From the NCBI GenBank assembly GCA_019694395.1, contig JAIBCC010000002.1, forward strand, positions 30,330-62,329: a stretch of 32,000 nt of DNA. Reading direction: 5' to 3'. The notes beneath the pieces were generated by a model that worked only from the letters and a program-made list of their open reading frames with translations, was not told where the DNA came from and did no database searches. The translations under genes were made by a program, and so were the position numbers. This document shows, in pieces, positions 2,756 through 22,341 of the stretch (positions are counted from its first letter, which is position 1; each line of letters begins with the position of its first letter). This DNA is from Pyrinomonadaceae bacterium (GTDB lineage: Bacteria; Acidobacteriota; Blastocatellia; Pyrinomonadales; Pyrinomonadaceae).

Positions 2756-2892
2756 TTGTAAGGTCAAATACTATTTGACTTGTAAATATCGAAAATATAA
2801 ACTTTAAATTTCAAACGTGGTGAGTTATTGCGACTTGCGACCACGCTAAATAAACCGCTAAACAGCTATGAGTTTTAGTTAAAGTTTGATGG

Positions 2893-3511: not shown

Positions 3512-6500
3512 ATGAGCAATAATTTTTTAGATTTATTAAAAGAAAGAGTCATCGTTTTTGACGGTGCGATGGGAAGCAATCTGCAATCCCAGAATTTGAC
3601 GATTGATGATTGGGGCGGTCCGAATTTTGAAAATTGTTCGGAAAATCTGCTTTACACAAAGCCCGAAGCGATTGAAAAAGTCCACACGGGATTTTTGGAA
3701 ATCGGCTGCGATGTGATCGAAACCAACTCTTTCGGCGGCGGCGAAGTCGTTTTGCAGGAATTTGGGATTGCGGATAAAGCGTATGATGTCAATAAATTAG
3801 CCGCGAGTTTTGCCAAAAATCTGGCGAATCAATATTCGACCAAAGCAAAACCGCGTTTCGTTGCAGGCTCAATCGGACCGGGGACGAAATTGCCGACGCT
3901 CGGACATATCACCTACGAAGATTTGAAAAAATCTTACGTTCAGCAAGTTCACGGACTTTATGACGGCGGCGTTGATATGTTCGTCGTCGAAACTTGTCAG
4001 GACATTTTGCAGACCAAAGCCGCACTCGCCGCGATTTTTGATTTTTTCAAAGAAAAACGAGTCAAAATTCCCGTTATTGCTCAGGTGACGATTGAAACTT
4101 TCGGCACGATGCTCAACGGAACGGAAATTTCCGCCGCGTTGACGGCACTCGAACCGTTCCCGATTGACGTAATCGGGATGAACTGCGGAACGGGTCCCGA
4201 TCAAATGACAGAAAACGTCAAATATTTGTGCGAAAACGCTCCGTTCTACGTTTCAGTTTTGCCGAATGCGGGTTTGCCTGAAGTGAAAGACGGACAGCAA
4301 TATTACACCGAATCGCCCGAAGATTTCGCTAAAAAGGTCGAGCATTTCGCCAAAGATTTCGGGGCAAATATCGTCGGCGGCTGCTGCGGAACTTCGTTTG
4401 AACATTTGAAAGCCGCGATTGATCGTGTCAGCCAGCTTTCGCCAAAGGAACGTAACGCCAAATTAGTTCCCTCAGCGGCTTCGATCTATTTCCAACAGCC
4501 TTACACGCAGGACAATTCGTTTTTGATCGTCGGCGAAAGAGTTAATGCTTCAGGCTCGAAAAAAATGCGTGATTTGCTCGAAGCCGAAAATTGGGACGGG
4601 CTGATCGCTTTGGCGAAAGAGCAGGAACGCGAAGGGGCGCACGTTCTGGATGTCAACGTGGATTTCGTCGGACGCGACGGCGTGGCTGATATGAACGAGT
4701 TGGTTTCAAAATTGGTCACCAACGTCAAAATTCCGCTGATGCTCGATTCAACCGAATGGGAAAAGATGGAAGCCGGATTAAAACTCGCGGGCGGAAAATG
4801 TCTTTTGAATTCAACCAATTACGAAGACGGACCGGAAAGATTTTACAAAGTTCTTGAGCTTGCCAAAGAATACGGGGCAGGCATCGTTATCGGTTTGATC
4901 GATGAAGAAGGAATGGCACGGACGGCGGAAAACAAACTAAAAATTGCCAGACGCGCCTACAAAGACGCAACCGCTTTCGGCATTCAGGCACACGATATTT
5001 TCTTTGATCCGCTTGCTTTGCCGATTTCGACCGGAATCGAAGAAGATCGTGCAAACGCGGCTGAAACCGTTGCTTCAATCAAACAAATTCACGAAGAAAT
5101 GCCCGAAGCAAATATAATCTTGGGCGTTTCTAATATTTCTTTCGGACTGAATCCTGCGGCTCGCGTCGTTTTGAACTCAATTTTCCTACACGAATGCGTC
5201 GAAGTTGGTATGAACTCGGCAATCGTTAATGCTTCTAAAATTCTGCCATTGAATCGGTTTAACGAACACGAAATCGAAGTCGCACTTGATTTGATCTACG
5301 ACCGACGCAAATTTGAAGGTGACATTTGCACATACGATCCGCTCGGGGAATTCACGACTTTGTTTGAAGGAAAAACCGCAAAGTCAATGAAGGCAGATAT
5401 TTCCAATCTTCCCATCGAAGAAAAATTGCAAAGACACATCATTGACGGCGAAAAAATTGGTCTTGAAGATACTCTCAAAGCCGCACTCGAAAAATATGAA
5501 CCGCTCGACATTATCAACACCCATCTTCTGGGCGGTATGAAGGTTGTCGGTGACCTTTTCGGTTCGGGACAGATGCAACTTCCCTTCGTTTTGCAATCTG
5601 CTGAGGCGATGAAAACTGCCGTTAAATTCCTCGAACCATTTATGGAAAAGGTTGAAGGCTCAGGCAAAGGTAAGATGATTTTGGCGACGGTCAAAGGCGA
5701 CGTTCACGACATCGGCAAAAATCTGGTTGATATTATTTTGACCAATAACGGCTATGACGTTGTAAATTTGGGAATTAAACAAGGCATTGACGAAATTCTG
5801 CACGCTTATCAGCAACACAAAGGCGATGCGATCGGGATGTCCGGTTTGCTCGTCAAATCAACTCTGATTATGCGTGATAATCTCGAAATTATGAACGAAC
5901 GCGGCATCAATGTTCCGGTAATTTTGGGTGGTGCGGCGTTGAATCGTAAATATGTTGATAACGATTTAGTGCCAATCTACAACGGCAAATTGTTTTATGC
6001 CCGTGATGCTTTTGATGGACTTCACGCGATGGATTCTTTAACTCAGAAGGGTTCAACCACAGAGAACACAGAGTTCACAGAGAAGGCGAAAGCGGTTTCT
6101 GCTGGTTCAGATGAAGTTATCCAAACTGTTGATGATGTTGAGGATTTGGTCGGTGAAGATGCAAAACTCGGGATGAAAGCCGCAACGGTGCATCAGAAAA
6201 AATCGGCTCTTGATTCAACTCATACTACTAAATCCGACGTTAAACCTGCCGAAATTATTCCAGCCGCACCGTTCTACGGCTCAAAAGTTGTGGAAATCAC
6301 CGATTTGAATAAAGTCTTTGAATTCATCAACGAAACTGCCCTTTTCAAAGGTCAATGGCAATACAAACAGGGCAAAAAATCGAAGGAAGAATACGCAGAG
6401 ATTTTGGAAAAAGAGGTTTATCCTAAATTCAAAGCGATCAAAGCACAGGCGATTCGTGAAAAACTGCTCGAAGCAAAATTAGTTTACGGCTACTTCCCTT

Positions 6501-7054
6501 GCCATTCGGAAGGAAACGATTTGATTATTTTGCAGGACGATGAAAAAACCGAAAGATTGCGTTTCACTTTCCCTCGTCAACCTCTTGAACAACGCGGCAG
6601 TAAAAACTTATGTTTAGCCGATTATTTCTCGTCGGATAAAACTGATGTCGTTGCGTTTCAATTAGTTACGATGGGAAGAAAGGCTTCGGAACACGCCGCT
6701 CAGCTTTTCAAATCTGATAATTACACCGATTATCTTTTGTTCCACGGACTTTCGGTTGAATCGGCGGAAGCACTCGCCGAAATGTGGCACAAACGCGTCC
6801 GCGAAGAACTCGGCTTTGCCCAAAATGATGCCAAAGATTTAGCCAAACTTTTCCATCAAGGCTATCAAGGTTCGCGTTACAGCTTCGGTTATCCGGCGTG
6901 TCCGAATCTCGAAGATCAGACAAAACTTTTTGAACTGCTTCAACCCGAAAGAATTGATGTCGAATTATCGGAAGAATTTCAGCTTCATCCCGAACAATCA
7001 ACTTCAGCGATAATCGTCCATCATCCGGAGGCGAAATATTTTAACGTGGAGTAG
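3512..7054 (+). CDS. metH: cobalamin-dependent methionine synthase
   Basis: All four modules are recognisable. Hcy-binding barrel (GGCCGT). Pterin-binding barrel. B12-binding DxHxxG...SxL...GG signature (GDVHDIGKN, MSGLL, ILGGAAL). C-terminal AdoMet reactivation domain (RYSFGYPACPNLEDQ). Confidence 0.95.
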   Translation: MSNNFLDLLKERVIVFDGAMGSNLQSQNLTIDDWGGPNFENCSENLLYTKPEAIEKVHTGFLEIGCDVIETNSFGGGEVVLQEFGIADKAYDVNKLAASFAKNLANQYSTKAKPRFVAGSIGPGTKLPTLGHITYEDLKKSYVQQVHGLYDGGVDMFVVETCQDILQTKAALAAIFDFFKEKRVKIPVIAQVTIETFGTMLNGTEISAALTALEPFPIDVIGMNCGTGPDQMTENVKYLCENAPFYVSVLPNAGLPEVKDGQQYYTESPEDFAKKVEHFAKDFGANIVGGCCGTSFEHLKAAIDRVSQLSPKERNAKLVPSAASIYFQQPYTQDNSFLIVGERVNASGSKKMRDLLEAENWDGLIALAKEQEREGAHVLDVNVDFVGRDGVADMNELVSKLVTNVKIPLMLDSTEWEKMEAGLKLAGGKCLLNSTNYEDGPERFYKVLELAKEYGAGIVIGLIDEEGMARTAENKLKIARRAYKDATAFGIQAHDIFFDPLALPISTGIEEDRANAAETVASIKQIHEEMPEANIILGVSNISFGLNPAARVVLNSIFLHECVEVGMNSAIVNASKILPLNRFNEHEIEVALDLIYDRRKFEGDICTYDPLGEFTTLFEGKTAKSMKADISNLPIEEKLQRHIIDGEKIGLEDTLKAALEKYEPLDIINTHLLGGMKVVGDLFGSGQMQLPFVLQSAEAMKTAVKFLEPFMEKVEGSGKGKMILATVKGDVHDIGKNLVDIILTNNGYDVVNLGIKQGIDEILHAYQQHKGDAIGMSGLLVKSTLIMRDNLEIMNERGINVPVILGGAALNRKYVDNDLVPIYNGKLFYARDAFDGLHAMDSLTQKGSTTENTEFTEKAKAVSAGSDEVIQTVDDVEDLVGEDAKLGMKAATVHQKKSALDSTHTTKSDVKPAEIIPAAPFYGSKVVEITDLNKVFEFINETALFKGQWQYKQGKKSKEEYAEILEKEVYPKFKAIKAQAIREKLLEAKLVYGYFPCHSEGNDLIILQDDEKTERLRFTFPRQPLEQRGSKNLCLADYFSSDKTDVVAFQLVTMGRKASEHAAQLFKSDNYTDYLLFHGLSVESAEALAEMWHKRVREELGFAQNDAKDLAKLFHQGYQGSRYSFGYPACPNLEDQTKLFELLQPERIDVELSEEFQLHPEQSTSAIIVHHPEAKYFNVE

Positions 7055-7057
7055 GAA

Positions 7058-7090
7058 TTAGCCACGAATTAACACGAATTTTCACGAATT
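7058..7090 (-). repeat. copy A of the 33-bp phased-octamer module (ttagcCACGAATTaaCACGAATTttCACGAATT), inverted relative to copies B and C
   Basis: Three CACGAATT octamers at 7063-7070, 7073-7080 and 7083-7090, an exact 10-bp period. The reverse complement matches copy B at 29 of 33 positions. All four mismatches fall in the 2-nt spacers. Confidence 0.9.
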
Positions 7091-7181
7091 ATTTTTTTTT
7101 GTTTTTGCATGATTTAAAGTGTTGTATGCTTGAATAATTTAGACGAATTTTAAAAATCAAGGTTAATTTTAGTATTTAAAA

Positions 7182-7214
7182 AATTCGTGTTAATTCGTGC
7201 AAATTCGTGGCTAA
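7182..7214 (+). repeat. copy B of the 33-bp phased-octamer module (AATTCGTGttAATTCGTGcaAATTCGTGgctaa)
   Basis: Octamers at 7182-7189, 7192-7199 and 7202-7209. The module ends 14 nt before the ATG at 7229. Confidence 0.9.
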
Positions 7215-7228
7215 AACCTCTTAAATTT

Positions 7229-7597
7229 ATGGAAATACTTCACAAAGACCTATCATATAAAATCGTTGGTTTGGCTATGCAAATTCACCGTGAGTTGGGT
7301 TACGGATTCCTCGAAAAGGTTTATGAAAATTCTTTGATGATTTTGTTGCGGGAGAATAAAATTAAAGCCGAGCAGCAAGTTCCGATCAAAGTCAATTTTC
7401 ACGGGCAAATTGTCGGTGATTACATTGCTGATATTGTAGTTGAAGACTCAATAATTTTGGAGCTAAAAGTGATTGATAAAATTACAAAATTCCAAATTGC
7501 TCAAACAATCAATTACTTAAAAGCTACTGATCTTAAACTTGCTCTGTTGATAAATTTCGGCAAAACAAGTCTCGAACACGAAAGAATTGTTTTATAA
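7229..7597 (+). CDS. GxxExxY family protein (PDDEXK_3 / PD-(D/E)XK nuclease-like fold), function unknown
   Basis: MEILHKDLSYKIVGLAMQIHRELGYGFLEKVYENSL...DYIADIVVEDSIILELKV...INYLKATDLKLALLINFG. The GxxExxY motif is GFLEKVY, and the D...ELK core is nuclease-like. I place the start at ATG 7229. The track start at 7187 only adds a translation of repeat copy B (LIRANSWL). Confidence 0.8.
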   Translation: MEILHKDLSYKIVGLAMQIHRELGYGFLEKVYENSLMILLRENKIKAEQQVPIKVNFHGQIVGDYIADIVVEDSIILELKVIDKITKFQIAQTINYLKATDLKLALLINFGKTSLEHERIVL

Positions 7598-7628
7598 TTC
7601 GTGTCAATTCGTGTTAATTTGTGGCTAT
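7596..7628 (+). repeat. copy C of the 33-bp phased-octamer module (AATTCGTGtcAATTCGTGttAATTTGTGgctat)
   Basis: Direct repeat of copy B, 28 of 33 identical. It begins on the stop codon of the GxxExxY gene (TAA 7595-7597). Its 3' end creates a perfect TATAAT at 7626-7631, 12 nt before the next ATG. Confidence 0.9.
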
Positions 7629-7642
7629 AATTCCCTATACTT

Positions 7643-7951
7643 ATGGATATTTACTCAAAAGCAACATTTTTATCTGAATTTCTTCCCAAAAATTTGGGAA
7701 AACATCATCAGAAACACGAATGGATCTTTGCCGAATATTTTGAGCATCCCGAACAACGCGAGGACAAAAAGTCTTATCGGGCTTTTGTTTTTCGTAATAA
7801 ATCGCGGACGGTTTACGGTCTTAAAGAATTTTACAATGACGCGAAAACTGATTTTCGGGCGTTAGCGGCGAAGGTAGTGACGGATGAGAGATTTCGTGAA
7901 AGTTTTATTACGGATGATGAGGATTTACCAAAAATTTGGAAGCGGCATTAA
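7643..7951 (+). CDS. hypothetical protein (102 aa, charged, no recognisable motif)
   Basis: Intact ORF with an ATG start, and 12 nt upstream of the next ORF on the same strand. I recognise no family. Confidence 0.45.
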   Translation: MDIYSKATFLSEFLPKNLGKHHQKHEWIFAEYFEHPEQREDKKSYRAFVFRNKSRTVYGLKEFYNDAKTDFRALAAKVVTDERFRESFITDDEDLPKIWKRH

Positions 7952-22105: not shown

Positions 22106-22341
22106 TTTGAGACGACAAGAAACGTTGAAAAATACAAGGGCGCAAAGCAACACGCGGGTCGCGCCAAAAACGGCAGAACTTTATGTGTCCTTCTTCACCA
22201 TAGCCTACGAGGTTAGCTGTCGGGCTAGGAAAGAAGAAGTTTCCCGCGTTTCTCAACGCTACGCCCCTGTTTAGTAAAACTAAACTTTGGTTCCCCCGTG
22301 CTGCGCTTTAATAGGCACAACTTCGGCGACAACTTTTCAAC
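22106..22341 (-). ncRNA. candidate structured non-coding RNA of unknown class (possibly 6S-like rod, or a structured 3' UTR of the ctaB operon)
   Basis: About 50% G+C by hand count, against AT-rich intergenic DNA elsewhere. Long-range helices read on the minus strand: 22341-22332 with 22133-22124 (10 bp), and 22306-22294 with 22158-22142 (13 bp with bulges). Internal hairpins: 22285-22269; 22239-22233 with 22196-22190; 22227-22223 with 22205-22201. G-U pairs in the two long helices would be C-A mismatches on the plus strand. No credible ORF. Confidence 0.45.

Follow-up and report, generated by a model that had tools for sequence, protein, structure and literature searches.

The stretch of DNA analyzed here, hereafter the window, comprises 32,000 nucleotides of the genome of a Pyrinomonadaceae bacterium (Acidobacteriota) and carries, directly behind the methionine synthase gene metH, a small gene of the GxxExxY family embedded in three copies (A, B and C) of a 33-nucleotide module. 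The stop codon of metH (3512-7054, + strand; TIGR02082, E 0) lies at 7052-7054, and module A (7058-7090) begins 3 nucleotides later. Module A is inverted (- strand, "minus-type") and reads ttagcCACGAATTaaCACGAATTttCACGAATT, in which TTAGC is followed by three CACGAATT units in 10-nucleotide phase. Modules B (7182-7214) and C (7596-7628) are on the + strand ("plus-type"): B reads AATTCGTGttAATTCGTGcaAATTCGTGgctaa, three AATTCGTG units followed by GCTAA, and C reads AATTCGTGtcAATTCGTGttAATTTGTGgctat, with the units AATTCGTG, AATTCGTG and AATTTGTG followed by GCTAT. Written as formulae, A is ttagc(CACGAATTnn)x3, and B and C are (AATTCGTGnn)x3 followed by GCTA(A/T). A and B are complementary at 29 of 33 positions across an AT-rich loop of 91 nucleotides (7091-7181, no strand assigned), with a single degenerate unit, GACGAATT, at 7142. 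A also pairs with C (91% complementarity across 34 nucleotides), and B and C form a direct repeat 55 nucleotides long at 78% identity, ATGGAnAT included. The GxxExxY gene (7229-7597, + strand, 122 amino acids) starts 14 nucleotides after the end of module B. Module C shares 2 nucleotides with its TAA stop codon (7595-7597) and ends 14 nucleotides before an open reading frame (ORF) of 102 amino acids (7643-7951, + strand), a downstream neighbor of unknown function that has no Pfam match and lies outside the element. An earlier note on this DNA had described the three modules, the inverted repeat, its spacer and the framing of the gene, and all of these coordinates were confirmed.

The modules stand out clearly from their sequence background. 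The octamer AATTCGTG is found at 10 places in the window, where 2.4 would be expected, and the phased triple octamer at 3, where 100 shuffles gave 0.00; within the 32 kb, modules are present at the metH/GxxExxY locus only. Chance or slippage as the origin of the modules was rejected, since none of the 100 shuffles matched and the octamer word recurs in at least 119 loci (see below). The A/B stem and the A/C stem each fold far better than shuffled sequences (z about -6 each). Module B is translated as "MLIRANSWLK" in a mechanical ORF call from 7187, and the same translation is found in the database homologs P0006, P0011 and P0049.

The 122-amino-acid protein shares 100% identity with a GxxExxY protein from a Pyrinomonadaceae (Acidobacteriota) metagenome-assembled genome, and it matches both PF13366 (PDDEXK_3; E 7e-38, 130 bits, cut-off 22) and TIGR04256 (GxxExxY; E 9e-40, 135.6 bits, curated cut-off 35). 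The residues G26xxE29xxY32, D68, E78-x-K80, Q92 and Y96 are invariant in homologs of different phyla with just 37-68% identity. Its AlphaFold2 model (predicted local distance difference test score 94.6) has the topology H-H-E-E-E-H-E-E, and Foldseek matches include Cas4 SSO0001 (E 3e-4), lambda-exonuclease-like, RecB-type and AddB/AdnA nuclease domains, MGME1 and Hjc, as well as PDB entry 3r3p at rank 41, which represents the fold class of the homing endonucleases I-Bth0305I and I-Ssp6803I. A sequence search for a relative in PDB detected none. The nuclease fold proposed in the earlier note is thus upheld by family matches, invariant catalytic residues and structure, and the model indicates that the protein is a minimal PD-(D/E)XK core with its catalytic residues intact, a predicted nuclease. 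The family is large, with 13,176 representatives at 50% identity (E ≤ 0.001), and a literature search on the function of PF13366/TIGR04256 found essentially nothing. A role as a defense system was rejected, as no PADLOC model matched the protein. We further noticed that P0151, P0153 and about 20 other proteins of 250-277 amino acids contain two GxxExxY domains in tandem. These may represent either pseudo-dimers or a fusion of neighboring genes, and such double-domain forms suggest that the GxxExxY protein may act as a dimer.

It is also evident that the locus is conserved among related organisms. Four contigs (L120-L123) have the same order of metH followed by the GxxExxY gene, the protein of which is 93% identical. 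The nine octamers of the three modules are all nearly intact in these contigs (1-2 of 72 positions changed), whereas 3-5 of 12 spacer bases have changed, and the T variant in unit 3 of module C is also kept. The 91-nucleotide A/B loop cannot be aligned between the window and these contigs, with the flanking octamers intact. The contrast between preserved octamers and variable spacers, earlier noticed among the three modules, therefore extends to orthologous loci, and comparison of these sequences indicates that the octamers themselves are under constraint at the metH locus. The GxxExxY gene differs from its ortholog by 27 synonymous and 8 non-synonymous codons, a ratio similar to that of metH next door (74 and 21). 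The conserved locus and the synonymous excess indicate that the cassette is old at the metH site, vertically inherited and under purifying selection. In a more distant relative (L206/L207), metH is followed after 164 nucleotides by a homolog of the 102-amino-acid ORF, with neither GxxExxY gene nor module, so that alignment downstream of metH does reveal an empty site. Homologs of the 102-amino-acid ORF in other contexts (L204, L208 and L210) have no module upstream. Taken together, these results show that the block 7058-7628 (+ strand), comprising A, the loop, B, the gene and C, behaves as a single presence/absence unit between metH and the 102-amino-acid ORF. No homology was found between the intergenic region of the L206 empty site and the A/B loop of the window. 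The TATAAT at 7626-7631, which the earlier note had ascribed to module C and placed 12 nucleotides upstream of the next ORF, lies 11 nucleotides upstream of the ATG at 7643 and is not conserved, the orthologous loci reading GGCTAAAAAT and GGCTAATTTT.

We then investigated 80 metagenomic loci whose encoded relatives share 46-70% identity with the query, and 74 of these loci had enough flanking sequence on both sides. An array was defined as two or more CRCNRAN units in 8-11-nucleotide phase within 70 nucleotides of a gene end, and the other genes in the same loci (n = 164) served as controls. Arrays are found at one end at least of 69 of the 74 GxxExxY genes (93%), compared with 19 of the 164 controls (12%; P = 8e-36, Fisher's exact test), and at both ends of 54 (73%), compared with 2 controls (1%; P about 1e-35, Fisher's exact test). 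Phased flanking repeats are therefore present at other GxxExxY genes as well, and the association is near-obligatory among the genes examined. In half of the loci the downstream array starts 0-13 nucleotides from the stop codon, and in 5 of 48 loci, with starts called crudely, the start codon is part of CACGAATG, the final unit of the upstream array. Most arrays have 2-3 units, with a period of 10 nucleotides in 77% and 9 nucleotides in 21%. The unit variants are CACGAAT, CACGAAM, CACGGAT, CACAGAT, CGCAGAT, CACAGAG and CGCGAAG; both arms of a locus share variants, and protein similarity follows the unit class. Cultured isolates show the same array pattern in four phyla, with Bacteroidota represented twice: Bacteroides finegoldii (after radA), Sphingomonas (fabD/fabG), a Fusobacteria strain, Treponema and Prevotella nigrescens. 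In distant family members the repeats are translated in over-extended N-termini, such as "IRANSWLK", "HEQTRKNTN" and "NADIADA", and such repeat-like N-termini may already be known to the TIGR04256 curators. The generality of the link between gene and repeat, including the translated repeats that the earlier note had mentioned for GxxExxY proteins of other phyla, is thus supported by metagenomic loci, isolates and distant homologs alike.

The commonest layout, found in 31 of the 74 loci, is a minus-type array, the gene and a plus-type array, (CACGAAT)n-gene-(ATTCGTG)n, in which the gene fills the loop of a palindrome. The direct-repeat framing emphasized earlier is real in the window, where B and C frame the gene, but this plus/plus form is a minority one, found in 4 of the 74 loci. 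These observations bear on one possible explanation, an autoregulated cassette that excises and integrates by recombination between the direct repeats B and C and whose product represses its own promoter at B. The 55-nucleotide length of the B/C repeat and significant direct-repeat flanks in 28 of 75 loci would fit such a cassette, as would locus L079 (4392-6184) of a Desulfovermiculus metagenome-assembled genome (MAG), in which palindromes and genes alternate (palindrome, HicAB, palindrome, GxxExxY, palindrome). However, the direct-repeat flanks mostly represent a complete palindrome on each side, and the five neighboring ORFs scanned include no integrase or recombinase. No sigma-70-like promoter was found on the + strand between module A and the ATG at 7229, which leaves none at B. 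An integron attC site was also rejected, as most outer ends read GGCTAA, GGCAAA or GGACA and only some GGTTAAA, and the attC core GTTRRRY is not general. Together with the rarity of plus/plus framing, these results make the direct-repeat cassette highly improbable.

GxxExxY genes tend to lie just downstream of a co-oriented gene. The upstream neighbor is co-oriented in 57 of 60 GxxExxY loci, compared with 76% of other adjacent gene pairs (P = 9e-5), and the median gap to it is about 55 nucleotides. In Sphingomonas parapaucimobilis YK209 (L237, 490-2654) a GxxExxY gene with arrays separates fabD from fabG in the fatty-acid synthesis operon, and in Acidobacteriota (L221/L229) one separates hppD from hmgA in the tyrosine catabolism operon, with gaps of only 2-48 nucleotides. 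The elements sit in essential operons (fabD-fabG and the metH operon) without disrupting them. Because no promoter of its own was found and metH is co-oriented, the gene is presumably transcribed by read-through. In L224 (2903-3640), directly next to a GxxExxY cassette, a Y1_Tnp (IS200/RAYT-like) gene has entered the 5' end of hmgA and duplicated the hmgA start. Involvement of such a transposase was rejected, since this Y1 transposase, the only one seen, has its own GGGCTAC-type hairpins unrelated to the octamer arrays. Phage origin and plasmid-borne mobility were rejected as well, with one GxxExxY locus and nine module matches in 2.9 million viral contigs, and the gene on 8 of 72,556 plasmids, all non-mobilizable by PLSDB typing and most of them large secondary replicons.

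The exact triple octamer was scanned in one genome per species, and the loci were read as 8-kb genome pieces. It is found in at least 119 loci of about 18 phyla, which include Planctomycetota, Verrucomicrobiota, Bacteroidota, Chloroflexota, Acidobacteriota, Nitrospirota, Nitrospinota, Desulfobacterota, Cloacimonadota, Desantisbacteria, Ignavibacteria/Chlorobi, Calditrichota, Armatimonadota, Hydrogenedentota, Spirochaetota, some Firmicutes and some Proteobacteria. Among the matches listed, 114 of 128 modules are intergenic and only 7 of the 119 array loci contain a GxxExxY ORF; the other neighbors are genes of ordinary length in either orientation. The arrays are therefore scattered, mostly as gene-less intergenic palindromes, beside ordinary genes of many phyla. 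Such scatter is what the earlier note had named as refuting its hypothesis, and the cassette is not self-contained, as that note had supposed. Given gene-less arrays in so many phyla, it looks instead like a gene-bearing member of a dispersed repeat family. Where GxxExxY proteins are present, the identical octamer is found beside proteins that are mutually only 37-68% identical. Within single MAGs (Chloroflexia and Spyradosoma) the palindromes are multi-copy, with sharp boundaries and conserved loops, reaching at least nine loci in Chloroflexia and at least seven in Desantisbacteria. The gene-less palindromes were considered as decayed GxxExxY elements, and this was rejected because their loops contain no remnants of the protein. 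Likewise, the arrays are not promoters or 5' untranslated regions of the downstream gene, as the gene on the side of the GG end shares the strand of the module in 56 cases and lies on the opposite one in 49, and TATAAT is not conserved.

Several arrays are parts of larger structures. In a Candidatus Spyradosoma MAG (L053, L067 and L070) and in Chloroflexia MAGs (L006, L036, L045, L047, L060, L064, L074 and L109), arrays occur in lineage-specific composite repeats. One composite is about 330 bp long and has terminal inverted repeats CGGTTGCCAATACCG, with CACGGAA and AATTCGTG arrays inside; the second, about 130 bp long, is a palindrome with outer arms GACTCTACTGCAAAAAGG / CCTTTTTGCAGTAGAGTC. 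In a Desantisbacteria MAG (L009, L014, L043, L061 and L117), a second phased repeat, (GTTTACARA)n with a 9-10-nucleotide period, lies directly upstream of AATTCGTG arrays. Arrays of at least seven units are found in L030 (1-130), L068 (4650-4772) and L076 (3057-3446); their unit drifts, e.g., from AATTCGTGCC to GGTTCGTGCC to AGTTCGTGCC, which suggests expansion of these very long arrays by slippage or unequal exchange. In a Chlorobium MAG (L032, 3746-4307), a minus/plus pair surrounds 506 nucleotides that contain neither a convincing ORF nor a remnant of GxxExxY (tblastn E 0.1).

The orientation of the arrays is strongly biased. An inverted partner lies at most 220 nucleotides upstream of 56% of the modules, the opposite polarity is found in 4%, and about 44% are solo; the polarity is thus fixed (66 vs. 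5, P = 1e-14), with outer ends TTAGC-C...G-GCTAA or close variants, which fits the ends of a directional element rather than a mere hairpin. Between the arms of the palindromes, octamer positions are 93% complementary, partly by construction, whereas spacer positions are only 39% complementary. These numbers bear on the possibility that the arms act in RNA, with the arrays pairing around the ORF to occlude its start codon (fold-back inhibition, as in IS10) and/or to allow RNase III cleavage as in the intervening sequences of 23S rRNA, such that a toxic nuclease is limited and the operon insulated. The strongly favored A/B and A/C stems agree with this possibility, and so do the lack of a separate promoter, the co-oriented upstream gene in 57 of 60 loci, and arrays that include the start codon (CACGAATG) or lie 0-13 nucleotides from the stop codon. 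However, a continuous RNA stem would pair its spacers, would not need a fixed polarity and would need complementarity only, not the same word across phyla, and the solo arrays have no partner to pair with. Arm mismatches compatible with G·U pairing show no bias toward the sense strand (43 vs. 41 in antisense), no terminator-like site or U-tract was found at the locus, and no Rfam 15 family matches the element, the only matches being sub-threshold chance ones to miRNA and snoRNA models. The intrinsic terminator and the RNA stem were therefore rejected as readings of the locus, including the terminator or RNase III stem that the earlier note had envisaged in metH read-through RNA, and we regard an RNA-level function of the arms as unlikely. 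Constrained units with free spacers, fixed polarity, a word shared across phyla, solo arrays, and the lack of both G·U bias and a terminator argue for sequence recognition at the DNA level over a role as a stem only.

If the units are recognized as DNA, the question arises whether the GxxExxY protein is the factor that recognizes them. The arrays could be host cis-elements, either sites of another DNA-binding protein or generic repeats like repetitive extragenic palindromic (REP) sequences, where GxxExxY genes land as selfish passengers in the manner of homing endonuclease genes and do not recognize the arrays. Most arrays lie beside ordinary genes with no GxxExxY gene nearby, about 44% of the modules lack an inverted partner, and GxxExxY genes lie between conserved neighbors like free-standing homing endonuclease genes, all of which fits such passengers. 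In addition, toxin-antitoxin pairs are bracketed by the same arrays, HicAB in L079 and an MNT/HEPN pair between minus and plus arrays in a Prolixibacteraceae MAG (L088, 2087-2914), so that the arrays may be generic boundaries. (In L144/L148, an AbiU2-like HEPN protein follows the GxxExxY gene.) On the other hand, the empty metH site of L206 lacks the arrays too, which indicates that no resident array was there for the gene to land in; the 93% association, with arrays abutting start and stop codons, is hard to obtain from target preference alone; and no candidate host factor is known. Landing of the gene in host arrays therefore appears rather unlikely.

The reading that we favor, to which we give a probability of roughly 0.4, is by analogy that GxxExxY is a nuclease with cognate phased binding arrays, resembling the REPIN/RAYT system but with a different enzyme. 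We hold just as tentatively that the block 7058-7628 is a gene-bearing member of a widespread, apparently undescribed family of intergenic repeats. The repeat arms would consist of two to four CRCNRAN units (here CACGAATT), 9-10 nucleotides apart with free spacer bases between them, in the polarity TTAGC-(CACGAAT)n ... (ATTCGTG)n-GCTAA. The units would be recognition sites at the DNA level, and the arms would not form one continuous stem. Their cognate factor would be the GxxExxY nuclease itself, a dimer or multimer of which might bind the phased units of the two arms cooperatively and cut at or near the array boundary, and the repeats may be, or may once have been, mobilized by it. The protein would then be related to the arrays as a RAYT transposase is to REP/REPIN sequences, or as an insertion sequence (IS) is to its miniature derivatives, with a Cas4/RecB-like PD-(D/E)XK enzyme in that place, and the gene-less palindromes would be non-autonomous copies. 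The promoter-less gene, just downstream of a co-oriented host gene and often within an operon, would be expressed by read-through. The metH locus would represent an old, vertically inherited element of atypical layout, with a complete A/B palindrome, the gene and a third array.

Several observations weigh against this reading. P0040 and P0036 (24 contigs each) are each found in a single context, hppD-hmgA; every exact protein sequence examined has one context, so there is no sign of recent transposition. At metH the gene has co-diverged with its host gene, which likewise speaks against recent mobility. No direct repeat of at least 3 nucleotides was found outside the arms in any of 38 palindromes (0/38), i.e., no target-site duplication. 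The scarcity of GxxExxY ORFs among the array loci, the lack of protein remnants in the loops of gene-less palindromes and the bracketed toxin-antitoxin pairs also count here. Different unit variants are mixed inside single arrays, so recognition would have to be degenerate; the spacing of 9-10 nucleotides is not strictly helical; and host phylogeny or GC content may account for the correlation between protein similarity and unit class. Finally, we found no report of GxxExxY nuclease biochemistry in the literature. A further generalization is possible but doubtful: that the GxxExxY proteins are the enzymes of new and widespread minimal elements, mobile or domesticated and of about 450 bp, in which a Cas4/RecB-like nuclease of 120 amino acids lies between arrays of phased 8-nucleotide sites, with non-autonomous palindromes in about 18 phyla, a PD-(D/E)XK counterpart of REPIN-RAYT. 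Should this be true, it would assign a function to a family of more than 13,000 clusters at 50% identity.

The finding exceeds the locus, in that the cross-phylum association between the GxxExxY family and palindromic repeats of phased units is apparently undescribed. PF13366/TIGR04256 is a large family with no assigned function, and its embedding in arrays offers the first concrete idea of a substrate. The repeat class itself is missed or mistranslated by current annotation. If the relation between nuclease and repeat holds, the REPIN/RAYT concept would widen to include a second enzyme class and phyla not known to have such a system, and a compact sequence-directed nuclease could result.

Some further features of the window concern metH and its surroundings. 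Within metH (6056-6082) there is an in-frame tandem (CACAGAGnn)x3 of 9-nucleotide period, which is translated as "TTENTEFTE" in the linker that joins the B12-binding domain to the activation domain. Its copy number varies among orthologs, from 1 in L121 and about 2 in L206 to 3 in the window, and it has no visible inverted partner. The GxxExxY gene of Bacteroides finegoldii is also flanked by CACAGAG units; the repeat inside metH may be coincidental slippage. A SAM_alpha (SAM-II type) riboswitch was matched in Rfam at 2807-2882 (+ strand; 40 bits, gathering score 36), upstream of metH and of an ORF of 177 amino acids resembling P-loop kinases; the family is nominally alphaproteobacterial and the genome acidobacterial. 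The operon trailed by the GxxExxY gene is thus probably regulated by S-adenosylmethionine. Another riboswitch, of the c-di-AMP (ydaO/yuaA) type, lies at 22187-22338 (- strand; 67 bits).

Comparison with known systems reveals partial likenesses to several of them. Like integron cassettes, many of which are compact, promoter-less, co-oriented small ORFs with imperfect palindromes and some of which carry toxin-antitoxin genes, the elements are small and palindrome-bound; however, there is no integrase among the five neighboring ORFs scanned and no adjacent attI, the cassettes occur singly, dispersed among housekeeping operons, and the arms are sequence-conserved unit arrays to which the GTTRRRY core is not general. 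The intervening sequences of 23S rRNA resemble them in having an ORF of about 120 amino acids inside a long terminal stem and a sporadic distribution, and their ORF family is abundant in the same phyla. They differ in that the element here is not in rRNA, that its ORF is GxxExxY and not the PF05635 four-helix bundle, and that it shows no signal of pairing at the RNA level. Free-standing homing endonuclease genes (I-Ssp6803I and I-Bth0305I, PD-(D/E)XK) share the fold class, the position of a small nuclease gene between conserved co-oriented host genes and a presence that varies among relatives, but they are not known to have bracketing repeat arrays or hundreds of gene-less copies of their flanks.

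The IS200/IS605 elements, and IS with their miniature inverted-repeat derivatives (MITEs), are closer. They share an enzyme of about 120-140 amino acids in an element of about 0.45-0.7 kb, ends that can form hairpins, the lack of target-site duplication, intergenic positions just downstream of genes, and short non-autonomous derivatives. Unlike IS200/IS605, the element has no HUH or DDE domain, multiple identical copies were not found, and its arrays are symmetric terminal inverted repeats, whereas the left and right ends of IS200/IS605 are asymmetric. Membership in the insertion sequences or MITEs at large is contradicted by the missing target-site duplications and by the lack of near-identical gene-bearing copies at separate sites. 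REP/REPIN sequences with RAYT transposases are short, dispersed, palindromic extragenic repeats with an associated enzyme gene (PMC3116915, PMC3337134). The GxxExxY elements resemble them in several respects: a small enzyme gene is flanked by its own repeats in inverted orientation (31 of 74 by the strict layout; A/C 91% complementary in the window), inheritance is mostly vertical and under purifying selection, target-site duplications are absent, and gene-less doublets far outnumber the gene. They differ in that the enzyme is PD-(D/E)XK and not HUH/Y1, which makes them an analog only and not a member; in that the arms are arrays of phased 7-8-nucleotide units where a REP is a single sequence of 20-40 nucleotides; and in that the octamer word is found in about 18 phyla whereas REPs are lineage-specific. 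The GxxExxY family also reportedly has many paralogs per genome, a further difference from RAYT. The near-obligatory embedding of the gene, together with the large excess of gene-less copies, makes REPIN/RAYT and IS/MITE the closest parallels.

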